Below, one piece after another: positions 16,376 to 32,326 of a stretch of 32,947 bases of DNA (position 1 is its first letter; each line of letters opens with the position of its first letter). The DNA is from a virus. Its lineage: Duplodnaviria > Caudoviricetes. The stretch lies in the IMG/VR virus record IMGVR_UViG_3300018050_000777, positions 1 through 32,947 of that record; one strand, given 5' to 3'. Both the position numbers and the translations under genes were made by a program. Under the pieces are notes generated by a model. It had not been told where the DNA came from, did not search any database, and saw only the letters and a list, made by a program, of their open reading frames with translations.

Positions 16376-18628
16376 TTAGAGCATTCCCATGGACTGGAGG
16401 GGGGACGGGACGCCACCCTGAGGGACCTGTTGCGGTGCCTGCGGGGCGGCTCCCTGCTGGGGTGCCTGCTCGGCCATGGCTTCGCCCATCTCCTGCTGAA
16501 TCTGGTCGGAGGCAGGCGAGACGCCGATACGGCCGATGGTCTTGTTCTTCTGCTGTTCGACAGACATCTGCAGGTTCTTGGAGTAGTTCTCCAACAGAAT
16601 CTGGAACACCCTGTCGCCCTGAGCGGCCTGAGCCGCCTTCGGGTTCTTCTGGAGGATTTCCTGAAGGTACTGCATCTTGGACTCGGCGGCAGGGTCGTTT
16701 TCGACGTACAGGGCCTCGTTGCCCAGCATCATCATGCCGACGTCGTTGATGACGTCCTTGTACAGTTTCTGGGACGCAGTGGTCTGGTCGATGACCAGTT
16801 CCCTTGCGGCGTCAGGAGAGATAGCCTCGATGACCAACTTGACGAGTTTGTTCCTGTCGATGACGCCACCACTGTCGAGCGGCACCACAGTCTCGACGAT
16901 GGACTTAAGTTTCTCCATGACGAACTCGGGGTCGGTATCCCTGACGTCGAACCTGACGTTGAAGTCGTACTGGCTGTGGATGTCAGACATGTTCTGTTTG
17001 AGCGGTGCACCCGTGATGCGGGTCACCTCCTCCTCTGGCATGAACTGCAGGCACAGGGAGAACAATTGCTTGTACGCTTGGGTCCAGAACTGGAGCCAGT
17101 TGTTCACCTGCAACTGTTGCATCATGCGTACCTTGTTCGGGTCGATGGTCTCTCCGACGATGAAGCCGTAGAAGTTCCCGAGGTTGGTCTCAATCTGCTG
17201 GATGATGCTGATTGCGTACTCGGCTTTACCCTGAGGAGGGTCCATCCAAGTGTAGTCATCCTTGGTCGAAACTGGAAGCACTTGCCCCGGAGCAATCCTG
17301 TTCAAGGCACCAACCCTCTTGACCACTTTTACTGGCGGCATGATTTCGAGTGCGGTCCTGTCACGGAACGCATCGTGCTGTGCCTTTACTTCGTCCTGTT
17401 CCGTCTTGGAGATTTCAGGAATGCCACGGCTTTCGGTCACCTGACGTCGGGTCATTTCGAACCTAATGGACACGAAAGGATACTCGCCATGGGCGTAGTT
17501 CAGCATGTCTTGGATGGCGTACAGGTCGTTTCCGACGTGCGGCGAGAAGACAGTGTAGTAGATGGCGGCGATGTCGCTCTCGTCCAACTGCCTGTAGTAA
17601 GCCCAGACCACCTCGATGAGGTTGTCGCCACGCTGGACGTTAGAGTTCAGCATCGTGGTGGTAGGCACGAGGTTTGGGTCGTTGAAGTAGAAGTGGTTGC
17701 CAGAGGTCTTCACGGCCGCTTCAATGAACTCAGGGTCCCATCCAGCGTTCTTCTGCATGGAGCGGAGTTCGACTTCGGTCATGTACTGCCTGCGGAAGAT
17801 GACACGGGCCTCCTGCAGGTCGCTCGTCTCTGGAGGGAAGCAGACTTCGTCAAACGGCTTCAACGCCGTGACCTTCGGAAGGTTCTTCTGGATGTATACC
17901 TCCTCAAGTTCGCCCTGACCTTCCTCACGCATCTTGACGATGAACTTGCGGATGTCCTTCTGCTTCATCTGCGGGAGCACCTGCTTGCAGAGTTCCATGG
18001 CGTACTCTTCCTTCTCTGGGTTCTGCAGTGCGGCGATGAGTTCGCCTGTGACTCCGCCCTGACCCATGGCCTCCTCCTGCTGTTGGACGGCCATCAGTTC
18101 TTCCATGGTCATGGTCTGACGCCTGATGCCAATCTTCCTGTCCCACGTAATTTGGGCACAGCACCAGCCGTAGGTGAGCATGTAATCGGCGACCAGTTCG
18201 GCTTCCTTCTGCATCTCGGACTTCAGTTTGGTCTCGACGAGCCAACGCATAAGGTTGGTGGCGGACGAAGCGGCCATAGCGTCATTGACCTCGGTGCCGC
18301 CGACCTTGAGGGTCGAGGCGTTGTAAGAGGTCATCAGCATGGCCTTCTGGTCACGGATAAGCCTGTCAACCAGCCTGACACGGACGTCAGAGGCACCCTC
18401 GAAGGGGAAGGCAGGGTCTCCGTCGGGGCGGGCCCACGAATGCTTCTTGCCGTCGTCGGTCTGGCCAGCCCAGCGGGCGTAGCGGACGTCGTCCGCCCAC
18501 GACATCTTGGACACCATGGTGCCGTGGTAGGCAGACCTCTCGTACTCCTCTAGGAGCGTCTTGATGTCTGGCTTGCGTTCGTGGTAGGCGAGCGGGTCGC
18601 TACCGACCTTGTTAAACTTGTTTTTCAT
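16376..18628 (-). CDS. Portal protein, 750 aa
   Basis: Size, position after terL, 'FPFEGASD', 'HGEYPFV...SRGIPEI' motifs and a Gln/Pro-rich tail typical of podovirus portals. Confidence 0.85.
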   Translation of the reverse strand: MKNKFNKVGSDPLAYHERKPDIKTLLEEYERSAYHGTMVSKMSWADDVRYARWAGQTDDGKKHSWARPDGDPAFPFEGASDVRVRLVDRLIRDQKAMLMTSYNASTLKVGGTEVNDAMAASSATNLMRWLVETKLKSEMQKEAELVADYMLTYGWCCAQITWDRKIGIRRQTMTMEELMAVQQQEEAMGQGGVTGELIAALQNPEKEEYAMELCKQVLPQMKQKDIRKFIVKMREEGQGELEEVYIQKNLPKVTALKPFDEVCFPPETSDLQEARVIFRRQYMTEVELRSMQKNAGWDPEFIEAAVKTSGNHFYFNDPNLVPTTTMLNSNVQRGDNLIEVVWAYYRQLDESDIAAIYYTVFSPHVGNDLYAIQDMLNYAHGEYPFVSIRFEMTRRQVTESRGIPEISKTEQDEVKAQHDAFRDRTALEIMPPVKVVKRVGALNRIAPGQVLPVSTKDDYTWMDPPQGKAEYAISIIQQIETNLGNFYGFIVGETIDPNKVRMMQQLQVNNWLQFWTQAYKQLFSLCLQFMPEEEVTRITGAPLKQNMSDIHSQYDFNVRFDVRDTDPEFVMEKLKSIVETVVPLDSGGVIDRNKLVKLVIEAISPDAARELVIDQTTASQKLYKDVINDVGMMMLGNEALYVENDPAAESKMQYLQEILQKNPKAAQAAQGDRVFQILLENYSKNLQMSVEQQKNKTIGRIGVSPASDQIQQEMGEAMAEQAPQQGAAPQAPQQVPQGGVPSPLQSMGML

Positions 18629-18819: not shown

Positions 18820-20448
18820 TCAGTAAGAGCCTCCTCCGAATGCACGATAAGAATCGGCACCGCCGTAGTCGGGTTGCATGACGGCTATGTACCTCAGGGC
18901 GTCGATAGGGTCCTTGCTAGAGCCCTTCTCGCCGTCTATGCCTGTCCATTCACGCAGGCACCACATGAGGTTCTTGCAGTCCTCGGAGATGTAAAGTTTC
19001 GGCTGGTTGACCGCAGAAATGGGCTGATTCTGGTCATAGGAGAACCAGTCGTTGATGATGCTGACGCCCTCCTCAAGCCTGAGGCCAGCGGATGCGGTGA
19101 AGTACATGGGCAACGGCTCTTCGTCCAGCAACTGGAGTAGCGTCGTACCCCCCTCTTTGTTGATGACGGGGGAGCCAGCGGCCCTAGGGTCAATGTAGCG
19201 TTCGGAGATTTCTTCTCCGTTCTCTAGGTTAAGGATGTGCTCCTTGATTTCAGTAAGCCCCATGCCAGCACCCTGCTTCTGTGCGGGTCCAGCACGGCCG
19301 TCGGCTTTCTCGGACGGCAGGGCCCACTCACCCATGCTAATGTCAGGCCACTCCCTGTAGACGAACTTGTTGCCGTACTCGTCTATTCGAAGCCACACCA
19401 TGAACCAGTTTCGTGCTCCAGCAGGGTCAACAGCCATGTAATTCGTGCCCTCCTCTGGGATTTGGTCCGCTGGGATGATGTTTGGCTCTCCGAACCTCGG
19501 GAATTGCGAGCCCGCAAGCGATTCAGCCCAGCCGTATGCACGGATTTTGACTTCATAAGGCCCACGGCCCCTCAGTGCTAACTTGATTTGTTCGAAGGGG
19601 GAGTATCTATTCAGGATTGAATGAAACCAGATTACATTGGCCGAACCCTTGCTGCATTCTGCAACGTAGGGCATGTGCCCCTTCGGGATGCTTGGGACAT
19701 TCTGTGTATCGGGCAGAAGGTCCGCATAAAGGGTCTTTTTAATGCGGCACCCAGCGACGTAGTCCTTGACGACGGGAGTGAAGCCAGTGATGGGCGTGAA
19801 GGTAAGAATCATCTTACCCGAACGGGTGACAAGTCGGTACCTTAAGGTCTCAATCCAGTCCTGCGGCACGAGTTCGTCGCACCAGATAAGGTCTGGTTCG
19901 CCACCTTCGATGACCTTCTTCTCCTGCCCGTAGTTCATGAAGAAGCACTGGGAGCGGTTAGGTAGAACGAACGTAGCGTCGGTAAATCCGTTCTTCTGGG
20001 AGTATTGGATGTTCGTGACCTTAGTCTTCTTGGCTGTCTTGAACTCGGGGGGCATGTATTTCCAGATGACGGCCTGTTGCATCTGAATGGAGGTCTGGGA
20101 AGTGGTGTGTAAGCACCAAATTCTGGAGTTCGGCCTAGTGCACAGCAGTTGCATGACCCTCTTGGCGGCGTACTCGGTCTTACCAGCACGATTTCCGCCC
20201 ATGATGAGCAGTTCGTTGCCCGACATCAGCAACTTGTCGGCCTCAGCCCAACTGTCGGGCTCGTATCCGTGCCTGTAGGGGTCGCCCTGTTCGGCCTTAA
20301 TCTTCTCTTCACGACGCTTGAGCACCTCGACGGCACCCTCCGAGCCTAGCGTCTTGGCTAGTTCGACTATCTCGTCCTCAGTCGGTAAGTGGATGATAGG
20401 ATGCTTGCTCAACTGCATCCCAGCCACTGTCACTAGGTCCGTGCTCAT
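18820..20448 (-). CDS. terL: Terminase large subunit, 542 aa
   Basis: Walker A GGNRAGKT, Walker B LIWCDE, coupling motif LTFTP, RNase-H-like nuclease AVDP and C-terminal DPIDALRY. Confidence 0.93.
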   Translation of the reverse strand: MSTDLVTVAGMQLSKHPIIHLPTEDEIVELAKTLGSEGAVEVLKRREEKIKAEQGDPYRHGYEPDSWAEADKLLMSGNELLIMGGNRAGKTEYAAKRVMQLLCTRPNSRIWCLHTTSQTSIQMQQAVIWKYMPPEFKTAKKTKVTNIQYSQKNGFTDATFVLPNRSQCFFMNYGQEKKVIEGGEPDLIWCDELVPQDWIETLRYRLVTRSGKMILTFTPITGFTPVVKDYVAGCRIKKTLYADLLPDTQNVPSIPKGHMPYVAECSKGSANVIWFHSILNRYSPFEQIKLALRGRGPYEVKIRAYGWAESLAGSQFPRFGEPNIIPADQIPEEGTNYMAVDPAGARNWFMVWLRIDEYGNKFVYREWPDISMGEWALPSEKADGRAGPAQKQGAGMGLTEIKEHILNLENGEEISERYIDPRAAGSPVINKEGGTTLLQLLDEEPLPMYFTASAGLRLEEGVSIINDWFSYDQNQPISAVNQPKLYISEDCKNLMWCLREWTGIDGEKGSSKDPIDALRYIAVMQPDYGGADSYRAFGGGSY

Positions 20449-23562: not shown

Positions 23563-24195
23563 ATGGACAACGAGAGACTTGATACCAACCCCTCCTCCAA
23601 CCACTCGGCTAAGCGTGTCTCGAAAGAGCGTCGTGCACAGGTCGAGGAACTGCTGAGGTCTGGCACCCCCATCCTCGAAGCGGCCAAGTTGGCCAAGATG
23701 TCGCCGAACAATGTCATGGCCATCAAGCGGGACATGCCAGAGGTCACGGGACTGCAGGATGAGTTCAAGGCCACGACTGTCCGCAACCTCAAGGCCTTCG
23801 TCCAGAGGGCGTCCCAAAAATTGGTAGACGAGTTGGACTCCCTCCATGTCAGCCAAATCCCAATCGCCATGGGTATCAGCATCGACAAGATTAACGCCCT
23901 GCAAGACCAGCCCCAAGCGGTGGTTGAGCATCGTTTCAGCATATCGCATGATGCCCTAGACAAACTGCTCAAGGCTAGGGGTCAGGGGGTAAAGGTGGAC
24001 CAGAAGGGGGTCATTGACCTCGATGTCGTGCACAACAAGCCCGAATCCACCCAGAATTTCTTGGACTGGGCTAAGGACCCAAAGGATTTTTTGGGCAAAA
24101 CAGTAGTACCTGACTATCCGTCAAGCGATTCGCCCCCTCCCATCGACCGACCCCCCCCGCCCCCTTCGAATGATGAGGGCGTGGGTGAGGATTGA
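23563..24195 (+). CDS. Terminase small subunit-like HTH protein, 210 aa
   Basis: HTH 'VEELLRSGTPILEAAKLAKMSPNNVMAIKR', then helices and 'IPIAMGISIDKINALQDQPQAVVEHR', resembling TerS oligomerisation regions. True start MDNERL, not the 23086 track start. Confidence 0.55.
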   Translation: MDNERLDTNPSSNHSAKRVSKERRAQVEELLRSGTPILEAAKLAKMSPNNVMAIKRDMPEVTGLQDEFKATTVRNLKAFVQRASQKLVDELDSLHVSQIPIAMGISIDKINALQDQPQAVVEHRFSISHDALDKLLKARGQGVKVDQKGVIDLDVVHNKPESTQNFLDWAKDPKDFLGKTVVPDYPSSDSPPPIDRPPPPPSNDEGVGED

Positions 24196-24223
24196 ATTTC
24201 GCACAACAGCAATTATGTCTAAT
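24196..24223 (+). other. XerCD dif-like recombination site
   Basis: ATTTCGCACAA-CAGCAA-TTATGTCTAAT has the 11-6-11 layout; arms resemble E. coli dif GGTGCGCATAA-TGTATA-TTATGTTAAAT. Confidence 0.75.
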
Positions 24224-24290: not shown

Positions 24291-24318
24291 TTGACATAGG
24301 GGGGCTGTGTTATAGGGT
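24291..24318 (+). promoter_or_regulatory. Sigma70-like promoter candidate
   Basis: TTGACA-N16-TAGGGT; no substantial plus-strand ORF follows. Confidence 0.35.
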
Positions 24319-24420: not shown

Positions 24421-24885
24421 TCATGTGCTAGGTCCTCTGGTGGCAAATGGTAAGGTGCGGCAGGCTATCTGCCACAGGTTAGGGATAGGCACGAGTATGA
24501 CCTTGGCGGCATTGTCATCGCCACCTGATACGAGCCTACAGCCATAGGCATCTGGGTTGGCATGGACGGCCCTGAGATAGTCCTTCAAGTCCTCTGTGGG
24601 CAGGACAATGGCCATGGTTGGCACATCGCCCAGCCTGAACACATGGACCCAAAAATCGGCGGTTGTGACAGCGATGCCTGACTTGCGGCCACGACACTCA
24701 TACTCGAATACGGCATTACCTGTGGTGGCCCAAGTATCACGCTCGGTCTTGACCTCGACCTTGGCTTGGTCCGTGCCCAGCCATGTGAGCCAGTTCTCAC
24801 CTGCTTGGCCGTACTGTAAGTCTATGTCGAACTTGGCTCGGTCAGAGCCAGAGGAGCGGGAGCCCTGTGCTTCGTAGTGATTCAT
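24421..24885 (-). CDS. PD-(D/E)xK restriction-endonuclease-like protein, about 154 aa
   Basis: 'FDIDLQYGQAGE...VEVKTE..W..TGN..FEY...SGI..T.ADFW...GGD' pattern common in phage nuclease-like proteins; likely start MNHYEA. Confidence 0.65.
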   Translation of the reverse strand: MNHYEAQGSRSSGSDRAKFDIDLQYGQAGENWLTWLGTDQAKVEVKTERDTWATTGNAVFEYECRGRKSGIAVTTADFWVHVFRLGDVPTMAIVLPTEDLKDYLRAVHANPDAYGCRLVSGGDDNAAKVILVPIPNLWQIACRTLPFATRGPST

Positions 24886-25405
24886 GATGTGCGTAGAGGA
24901 GATTCTCGTAGCGTTCGCCTGTGGCCATCTTGCGTCGAGCAAGGGCATAGGCATAACCTACTGAGGTGAGTGGCTTCCATGGGGCCTTGTCATAGTACGA
25001 GCATACGACTGTGGGCTCATATGGACTGATGACGTGCTTCAGGTCAGTCATGTGGCCTATCTTGGCCAGCACGCTTGGGCCCAGTGAGTAGCACGCATAC
25101 AGCAAGGCTGGGCTTGGTGGTGCCCTGTGATGTACCCTGAAGCGTGAGACTATCTTCATCAGGAACGTGGTTGCATACTCACGTGCTATCTGTGGGTCAT
25201 ATGCACTGTGATAAGGATGCACAGCCAGACCATCACGTCGCCTCATGTCGCTGATGTCATCCCATGCACTCTGGTGTATCTGGAATGCACCAATGGCTGG
25301 ACCATCAGGATGATTGATGTCGCCCTTGGCCTTGGGGTCATCGCCTGACTCAATGAGTGCGAGTGCATGAGCGAGTGCCCGCTGGTCTGTGTATACTGTG
25401 TGCAT
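24842..25405 (-). CDS. Lysozyme-like / lytic transglycosylase-fold muramidase, about 187 aa
   Basis: 'ALIESGDDPKAKGD...AIGAFQIH..AW.D' catalytic Glu-Ser and GxxQ motifs; likely start MHTVYT. Confidence 0.75.
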   Translation of the reverse strand: MHTVYTDQRALAHALALIESGDDPKAKGDINHPDGPAIGAFQIHQSAWDDISDMRRRDGLAVHPYHSAYDPQIAREYATTFLMKIVSRFRVHHRAPPSPALLYACYSLGPSVLAKIGHMTDLKHVISPYEPTVVCSYYDKAPWKPLTSVGYAYALARRKMATGERYENLLYAHHESLRSTGLPLLWL

Positions 25406-25445
25406 GGGCTTGCCCTTACCCGAATGAGATACGATGTTGGGGCTC

Positions 25446-25913
25446 ATGGCAAACAAACGCACGTCGGGCAAGAGACAGAGAACAACCAAGAAGCAGGCCA
25501 ACCCGCTGAAGCGGAAATATGGCGAGAGCGGTGTCGAGGCGTTCATCGCCCACCAGAAAAGAATCAGTGAGGAACAAGTCAACAGTTTGATGATGCTCGA
25601 ACCACGTGAGTGGTGTGATTACGCATGCGTTGGTGTGGCCGAGGACAACATGGGCTCACTACGTTGTGTGTATGACCTCAACATACTGGAGCATGCGTAT
25701 GCACTCATGTATGCGTATGAGGAATTCGGATACGAGAGTATCGACAAACTGGTTACACAGGCGACGCCTGAGCAATTCGACATGGCTCAAGAGTGGGTAT
25801 CATACAACACGCTCAGGGCATGTCCTCACATGGGACCTAATTCCCCTCTGTTCGTACGCTCTCACGACCCCAAAAAGTGGCAGACGGCCCAAGAATGGGA
25901 CATGGGCTGGTAA
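25446..25913 (+). CDS. Conserved phage hypothetical protein, 155 aa
   Basis: 'VYD...A.EWVSYNTLRA.PHMG...P' pattern; start MANKR. Confidence 0.7.
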   Translation: MANKRTSGKRQRTTKKQANPLKRKYGESGVEAFIAHQKRISEEQVNSLMMLEPREWCDYACVGVAEDNMGSLRCVYDLNILEHAYALMYAYEEFGYESIDKLVTQATPEQFDMAQEWVSYNTLRACPHMGPNSPLFVRSHDPKKWQTAQEWDMGW

Positions 25914-31870: not shown

Positions 31871-32326
31871 GTGAGCACACAAGAAAACCAGACCCAGCCC
31901 TCCGCTGAGGTCGTCACCAAACCAGTACAGACGTACTGGGCCAAGCAGAAGGGCTTCAAACACCCCGAACGCAAGGTCAAGCGTCCGAGGTACGACAAGG
32001 AACTGAAGAAACTCGTCGGGCAGGTCAATGTGACCTGTGCGGTTTCCAAGGACCTCGTCCGCCTCGTCGAAGAGCAGTGCCTGCAAGACGGCATCACCCG
32101 CTCGGACCTCCTGCGAGCCGCCCTCATCCGTGAGGTTGCCTTCAGGAAGTTCTGTCGGGAGAATGGTGCCTCGCCGCTCGCCGTCTCTCACCTGACCCCT
32201 ACGGGCCAGAAGCCAGAGAAGGCGGTCAAGGCGAAGCCAGCCAAGGCTCCGAAGCAGACGTTGGTGACTGTGCCCAAGGAGACGCTCGACCAAATCTCGG
32301 CCGTCTTCAAGGCACTCAACGGCTAA
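31871..32326 (+). CDS. RHH-containing DNA-binding protein, 151 aa
   Basis: 'VNVTCAVSKDLVRLVEEQCLQDGITRSDLLRAAL'; Lys/Ala/Pro-rich tail. Confidence 0.65.
   Translation: MSTQENQTQPSAEVVTKPVQTYWAKQKGFKHPERKVKRPRYDKELKKLVGQVNVTCAVSKDLVRLVEEQCLQDGITRSDLLRAALIREVAFRKFCRENGASPLAVSHLTPTGQKPEKAVKAKPAKAPKQTLVTVPKETLDQISAVFKALNG

Follow-up and report, generated by a model that had tools for sequence, protein, structure and literature searches.

Phage P1 circularizes by Cre-mediated recombination at loxP in its terminal redundancy. Chromosomal dif sites, which are served by XerC, XerD and FtsK, consist of two 11-bp arms around a 6-bp spacer, and in Escherichia coli this spacer reads TGTATA. The plasmid sites cer and psi carry an accessory sequence of ~200 bp beside the core. 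According to PMC6744903, Xer recombination is inactive at dif by default and requires FtsK, accessory proteins or XafT, and XerC by itself produces junctions that can be completed by replication. The IMEX (CTX, TLC with XafT, and gokushovirus EC6098) have no integrase and carry a dif-like site for host XerCD, as described in PMC6744903 and PMC7062461. Passages of PMC9703825 and PMC3556154 concern phage-encoded recombinases rather than host dif sites, and the latter mentions Cre as a resolvase. In the literature that we searched, mostly openly readable papers, no report was found of host dif sites in the terminal repeats of tailed phages; the papers that came up dealt with IMEX, gokushoviruses, tailless phages and phage recombinases.

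The window examined here is the whole 32,947-base record G000. It represents part of a tailed-phage genome, complete relatives being ~48–50 kb long. On its plus strand, positions 24196–24223 read ATTTCGCACAA-CAGCAA-TTATGTCTAAT in an 11-6-11 layout, with a XerC-type arm at 24196–24206, the spacer at 24207–24212, and a XerD-type arm at 24213–24223. The arms are assigned by analogy with the dif sites of E. coli and Methylacidiphilum, the latter as given in the PMC3025954 supplement. The original prediction was of a dif-like site right after a terS-like stop codon, and the first base of the site (24196) does directly follow the TGA at 24193–24195 that closes a plus-strand open reading frame (23563–24195). 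Its right arm agrees with the XerD arm at 9 of 11 positions, as had been claimed, and the site as a whole is an imperfect inverted repeat (7/11). When the window was compared with a generic dif pattern at three or fewer mismatches, 24196–24223 was the sole match. The runner-up place has eight mismatches, and none of 100 dinucleotide shuffles of the window gave a match at that threshold.

This arrangement is retained in related phages. Among 59 IMG/VR loci with the HTH protein encoded by 23563–24195, nine end short of the site and were left out of the count; all 50 viral loci that span the place carry it. A set of 48 metagenome loci overlaps the IMG/VR set at many points and excludes the window's own record (L483). 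Four of these loci stop before the site, and 43 of the 44 that span the place have it, 42 in the same direction and one (L506) inverted. One family member, L497, has the C-tract and the TTGACA hexamer described below with the site between them absent, which may reflect either a naturally occurring deletion or an artefact of an assembly end. Among 43 distinct relatives, positions 3–11 of the left arm are kept at 86–100% and 9 of 11 positions of the right arm are invariant, while the flanks of these 43 copies diverge to the point of being hypervariable. The conserved arms occupy a noncoding position, as is expected of a dif-type site. Three near-invariant arm pairs are unable to base-pair, being paired in 1, 0, and 0 of 63 distinct sites, which indicates that the constraint on the site is not a hairpin. 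A candidate RNA hairpin or terminator at the site was rejected. Taken at the level of sequence, the data support an XerCD dif-type site under selection, beside packaging landmarks and in a phage family in which no integrase was found.

The arms of the site match those of one bacterial lineage. Searched with the phage-derived pattern, GTDB genomes gave at least 120 loci, and among the 120 matches listed, 114 are titled Verrucomicrobiota and most are named as Opitutia-level taxa (a count of titles). The commonest host form among these matches is ATTTCGCACAA-TATACA-TTATGTCTAAT. Both window arms equal the commonest arms of this Opitutia motif (22/22 positions among the matches listed), which is closer than the match to the XerD arm given above, and two of the six spacer bases equal those of TATACA. 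The exact host motif occurs in 124 of 301 sampled Opitutales genomes and is present as a single copy in 122 of these 124. On the complete chromosome of G006, GC skew changes from +0.044 to −0.044 at the motif, and at 60 host loci KOPS are oriented toward it at ratios of 63:3 in the left flank and 70:1 in the right flank. By single copy number, skew switch and KOPS convergence, the Opitutia motif behaves as the chromosomal dif. Two XerC/D-like genes were found in each of five hosts tested, and FtsK-gamma is present in G006. Distance from dnaA was considered as a terminus check and discarded as uninformative. In G006, dnaA (G006:C1:2598060; in another genome, G008:C2:2276820) is only ~0.54 Mb from the motif and hence not at the origin there, so GC skew and KOPS were used instead.

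Published dif predictions include two relevant Verrucomicrobia entries. In the PMC3025954 supplement, the Methylacidiphilum dif has a left arm nearly identical to that of the Opitutia motif. Row 599 of that supplement gives an Opitutus terrae dif that is unlike the Opitutia motif and is displaced from the skew shift by 16 degrees, an entry that may be a misprediction. The Opitutales genomes G007 (five places) and G006 (two) have additional dif-like sites in which the left arm is ACCGCACAA and the spacers vary, possibly derived from mobile elements or pdif-like modules.

The sequence match suggests that this freshwater phage family likely infects Opitutia (Verrucomicrobiota). Homologues of its TerL, portal and capsid proteins at 25–40% identity were detected in 8 of 401 Opitutales genomes, versus no strong TerL match in 401 genomes of a control order, where only weak partial matches occurred (4/401). 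In the DNA stretches examined, the prophage-like relatives in these eight Opitutales genomes showed no dif-like site. Head-module prophage-like relatives are located at G021:C1:3029804-3082286 and G336:C2:170256-178203, and G021 has two tyrosine recombinases ~30 kb from terL.

The spacer of the phage site is far more variable than its arms, with 16 forms among 63 distinct family sites. An A is kept at spacer position 2 in 60 of the 63 and at position 6 in 58, and both the exact 6-bp spacing and these two bases are common to phage sites and host dif. The host-like T at position 1 is found in only 16 of 63 family sites, versus 97% of hosts among the matches listed. The same holds for whole spacers among the matches listed: TATACA occurs in 44 of 120 hosts and in none of 119 viral sites, the four commonest host spacers together account for 87 of the 120 hosts but for only 3 of the 119 viral sites, and 35 of the 119 viral spacers occur at least once in some host match. 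The spacer changes at least 28 times on the HTH-gene tree, with identical hexamers appearing again in branches far apart. Orientation is also free, as L506 illustrates within the family; in the T7-like lineage described below, the site runs one way in 22 loci and the other way in 15 (37 loci). The phage site therefore shares with chromosomal dif its 11-6-11 layout, its arms (22/22) and A2 and A6 of the spacer. It differs in being carried by a phage, in a spacer unlike the host's, in having no converging KOPS, and in its free orientation.

Exchange of flanking sequence was also examined. Flanks are discordant across the site in 40 of 107 pairs, versus 9 of 75 and 18 of 102 at two control borders, with the limitation that pairs are not independent. 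No signal specific to crossovers between phages with the same spacer was observed (26 of 69 same-spacer versus 14 of 38 different-spacer pairs, again non-independent).

Two conserved landmarks bracket the site. A C-tract, GACCCCCCCCGCCCCC (24149–24164, plus strand), which we infer to be a terminase landmark near the start of a terminal repeat, lies 41–59 bp upstream of the site in 41 of 42 site-bearing metagenome loci. On the far side, the window has a conserved TTGACA hexamer resembling a −35 element (24291–24296, plus strand), and all 42 metagenome loci have TTGAC[A/T] 51–79 bp downstream of the site. The order in the family is C-tract, ~30 variable bases, site, ~70 variable bases, and TTGACA. 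The pair TTGACA and TATAGG was rejected as a promoter because the gap is 14 nt and a promoter scan at 24291–24296 revealed no full sigma-70 site.

Similar landmarks are present in phages whose ends have been mapped. Of the phages with mapped ends, LUZ24 is the closest by TerL (25%), and it has the same divergent gene layout as the family. Its 184-bp repeat has a C-tract at its start, and TTGACA begins 16 nt past its end. In LUZ100, an AAAAA-TGCGAG motif precedes a C-tract, and the 244-bp repeat begins 13 nt ahead of that C-tract. Of 41 T7-like loci, 37 have a similar motif, with the site 39–121 bp beyond it. Since the landmarks are common to LUZ24 and LUZ100, the site of the window phage is probably inside a short direct terminal repeat. 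By the same analogy, the landmarks appear to fit a short fixed direct terminal repeat of the LUZ24/T7 type better than headful pac packaging. The original placement beside a terS/pac region thus stands insofar as packaging landmarks do adjoin the site, but its pac component fits less well than a short fixed repeat.

Assembly data are compatible with a nearby genome end. Within 500 bp of the site, the density of contig ends is raised approximately sixfold (17 of 58 loci), as would suit a genome end but also a hypervariable poly-C stretch. In circular records the end repeats, 38–127 bp long, are overlaps sized by the assembler, and each assembled circle has one copy of the site. Among 15 circular records, the site is inside the overlap in one and the break is 158 bp from the site in one more, which is suggestive only.

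In this strain, the site directly follows the stop codon of a gene (23563–24195, plus strand) for a 210-amino-acid HTH protein that is a plausible small terminase. Its AlphaFold model has an N-terminal HTH and long helices at low confidence (mean pLDDT 58.8). Comparisons gave weak matches to PaP3 TerS (rank 5, E 0.49) and to the HTH of LUZ24 TerS (E 0.025, probability 2%), and 4 of 18 members of this protein family weakly matched the PHROG terS family (E 0.025). The terS-like label from the original prediction is therefore plausible given the HTH, but profile and structure matches are weak (E of 0.025 or higher, pLDDT 58.8). In the window, the proline-rich tail of the protein (24149–24195) is a read-through of the conserved C-tract. 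In the window the HTH gene points against terL; in distant groups it occupies the opposite side of the site.

Other genes give a picture of the phage itself. TerL (18820–20448, minus strand; phrog_2, E 1e-15) has as its nearest records C75C1 (32%) and the LUZ24-like phages (25% over 56% of its length). An SU10-type portal (16376–18628, minus strand) matches PF23899 with an E value of 6e-7, just under the curated cut-off. The minus-strand late genes comprise TerL, this portal, the major capsid protein, and RusA. On the plus strand, PHROG matches between 27325 and 31761 identify exonuclease VIII, a lambda O-like initiator, a DnaC-like loader, and Erf, a combination which suggests that the phage has a circular theta stage. 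The exonuclease and Erf could also give it a homologous route for joining ends.

Consistent with the original prediction, no recombinase was seen in the window by PHROG, Pfam and custom integrase profile searches. A PF00589 search of 23 near-complete family records was also negative, but this search is insensitive, having missed the real integrase of G411, a provirus from a distant group. The negative therefore rests on phrog_1, which gave a single weak 45-position match in 21 records (G428, E 4e-4), and on the custom profile, which found no integrase in five whole family genomes or in the window. The serine recombinase domain PF00239 was absent from 26 of 26 records searched. The rest of the genome, as represented by near-complete and whole family members, thus likewise yielded no integrase.

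Sites of this type are not confined to one phage family. The phage pattern matches at least 119 loci in IMG/VR, and among 80 listed loci with flanks, 26 are in or near the family, 8 belong to a distant group (TerL at 34–40%), and 40 to an unrelated T7-like lineage. In the T7-like lineage the site is ~0.6–1.3 kb beyond terL. This uncultured T7-like cluster (L260–L336; for example L263:159-1850), which carries the Opitutia-type site, has TerL proteins 55–65% identical to those of Ayaqvirus, HTVC and CRP phages; two near-complete T7-like members have no integrase, whereas cultured relatives have one. A palindrome-like motif of the GTTGATTATCAAC type often occurs within ~30 bp of the site in T7-like and distant loci (L283, L290, L292), and is absent from the window's family. 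This GTTGATTATCAAC-type motif is a possible accessory-protein site.

Direct evidence for a duplicated site comes from phages of other hosts. Perfect E. coli-type arms are present in both annotated 519-bp repeats of Hena1 (NC_048828) and in both 459-bp identical ends of HdK5 (MK373780), giving two direct copies in mapped repeats, and the spacers of both phages are one base off TGTATA. Like the window site, those of these Vequintavirinae combine host-perfect arms with a changed spacer, although Hena1 and HdK5 are unrelated large phages of enterobacteria. The sites are unannotated in both records, and we know of no function for them. A scan with E. coli-type arms found the host spacer at 35 of 80 loci and other spacers at 45. 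No good dif-type site was found in LUZ24, LUZ100, C75C1, CRP-171, HTVC134P, or S45-C18, which indicates that terminal-repeat phages do not generally need one. A 46-base host dif query against 50,697 phage records gave no convincing match. On the phage contigs L538, L557 and L572, DnaA-box-like words (TGTGGATAA(C/G)) were noticed beside an E. coli-type dif-like site.

We consider the chances about even that host XerCD recombines two identical copies of the site in the phage and so closes or concatenates its DNA. The site would be present in both short terminal repeats of virion DNA, and host XerC and XerD would bind both copies. By joining them, XerCD would convert the linear incoming genome to a circle for theta replication; alternatively, it might join and split genome copies later. 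Under this proposal the arms are fixed because they must fit the host enzymes, and spacer and orientation are free because the partner is the phage's own second copy. Recombination with the chromosome would be avoided by a spacer unlike that of the host. A Holliday junction made by XerC could be resolved by replication, as in CTX, making an activator unnecessary. Activation is the weak point of this reading: Xer is inactive by default, and the phage genomes examined showed no KOPS polarity, DUF3653 or FtsK-gamma. Also against it stand the distance of the LUZ24 anchor (TerL 25%), the existence of L497 without the site, the six other phages that have no good site, the missing crossover signal between same-spacer phages, and the Erf/exonuclease route to end joining.

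Several uses of host Xer had been put forward in the original prediction, and on sequence grounds a P1 loxP-like role in terminal redundancy appears to be the best-fitting option, whereas integration at dif is unlikely. By analogy with P1, the phage would have a tyrosine-recombinase site near its packaging end, likely duplicated in the virion, for recombination of self with self. The differences are that the recombinase would be a host heterodimer, with none found in the phage, and that the repeat appears to be short and fixed rather than a headful redundancy. In a broader proposal, to which we give somewhat less than an even chance, many unrelated integrase-less tailed phages would have independently placed a host-specific dif mimic with a private spacer in their terminal repeats, and host XerCD would close or concatenate their genomes. 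This would add a third role for Xer to those in plasmid resolution and IMEX integration, one exercised without FtsK guidance, and the arms would name the host lineage of uncultured phages.

End joining after entry by short-repeat tailed phages is known for few models. If the proposal is true, a host recombinase site in the repeat represents a new host dependency as well as a new use of Xer, and it prompts the question of what activates XerD when neither FtsK guidance nor XafT is at work. Arm sequences of dif vary from one bacterial lineage to another, which also makes the site a host tag, and this tag points at least two uncultured phage lineages (the freshwater family and the T7-like phages) to Opitutia.

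Another explanation is that XerCD acts only on a circular replicon, resolving Erf-made dimers during theta replication or in a carrier state as at cer and psi, and that the place near the end is merely free noncoding space. We regard this explanation as unlikely, though it deserves serious attention. The O-like initiator, DnaC loader, Erf, and exonuclease are all present, each assembled circle has one copy of the site, and free spacer and orientation fit equally well. However, the site is found at terminal landmarks in unrelated lineages, including the T7-like phages, and is inside the mapped repeats of Hena1 and HdK5. The analogy to cer and psi, as covered in PMC6744903, would lie in host XerCD acting on an element's own direct copies with a spacer unlike that of dif. 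The phage site differs in its location at phage end landmarks, and it appears to differ in its flanks, which are hypervariable and seem to lack a conserved accessory sequence of the ~200-bp cer/psi type.

It is also conceivable, if rather improbable, that XerC and XerD bind the site without strand exchange, where they might cap ends, stop a translocase, or shape DNA near an early promoter or the terminase cut. Such a role agrees with the free orientation and spacer, with a location between the C-tract and TTGACA, and with the fact that no activator was found: KOPS polarity was absent from 10 phage genomes and the window (versus 63:3 and 1:70 in hosts), DUF3653, the XafT domain, from five of five phage genomes, and FtsK-gamma from four. 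In contrast, avoidance of host spacers is best explained by a recombination-capable site. The exact 6-bp spacing and the kept A2 and A6 also argue for strand exchange, but cooperative binding may need these too.

Integration at host dif via XerCD, with the site serving as an attP in the manner of IMEX, is a highly unlikely reading. It could account for the lack of an integrase in the window family and in two T7-like genomes, whose T7-like relatives carry one, and spacer position 6 does equal that of the host. Moreover, gokushovirus dif motifs have variable spacers, yet these phages integrate, as reported in PMC7062461. However, phage DNA follows the site in all 38 metagenome loci that extend more than 600 bp past it, with no host-phage junction. 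None of 80 host dif flanks, a limited sample, matched ten phage genomes or held a second site. IMEX rely on spacer homology with host dif on the exchanging side or on a XafT activator, whereas 47 of 63 family sites have a base other than the host T at spacer position 1, in line with the general avoidance of host spacers. Provirus G411 has its own integrase at the edge with its dif-like site 29 kb inside. The window phage further differs from IMEX in being a tailed dsDNA phage with both arms host-perfect, no integration seen, and no XafT domain found. The suggestion that the phage integrates at dif is thus not upheld.

We give very little weight to the alternative in which the motif serves TerS or a repressor of the phage as an operator, or forms an RNA hairpin, and resembles dif by chance: it does abut the HTH-gene stop and is an imperfect inverted repeat, but its arms are identical at 22/22 positions to a lineage-specific chromosomal motif among the matches listed, the same motif occurs in unrelated phages with different packaging proteins, the non-pairing arm pairs are near-invariant, and the site inverts freely.

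A few further genes of the window and its relatives were noted. Relatives encode very large minus-strand proteins of ~3,550 and at least 2,187 amino acids (L433:9317-19972 and L434:3-6563, the latter in G001). The second of these is without a PHROG match, and the region encoding the giant proteins is mostly absent from the window. An SLT transglycosylase-like gene (24842–25582, minus strand) is next to the end region, and a gene for a ribbon-helix-helix protein is located at 31871–32326 on the plus strand.
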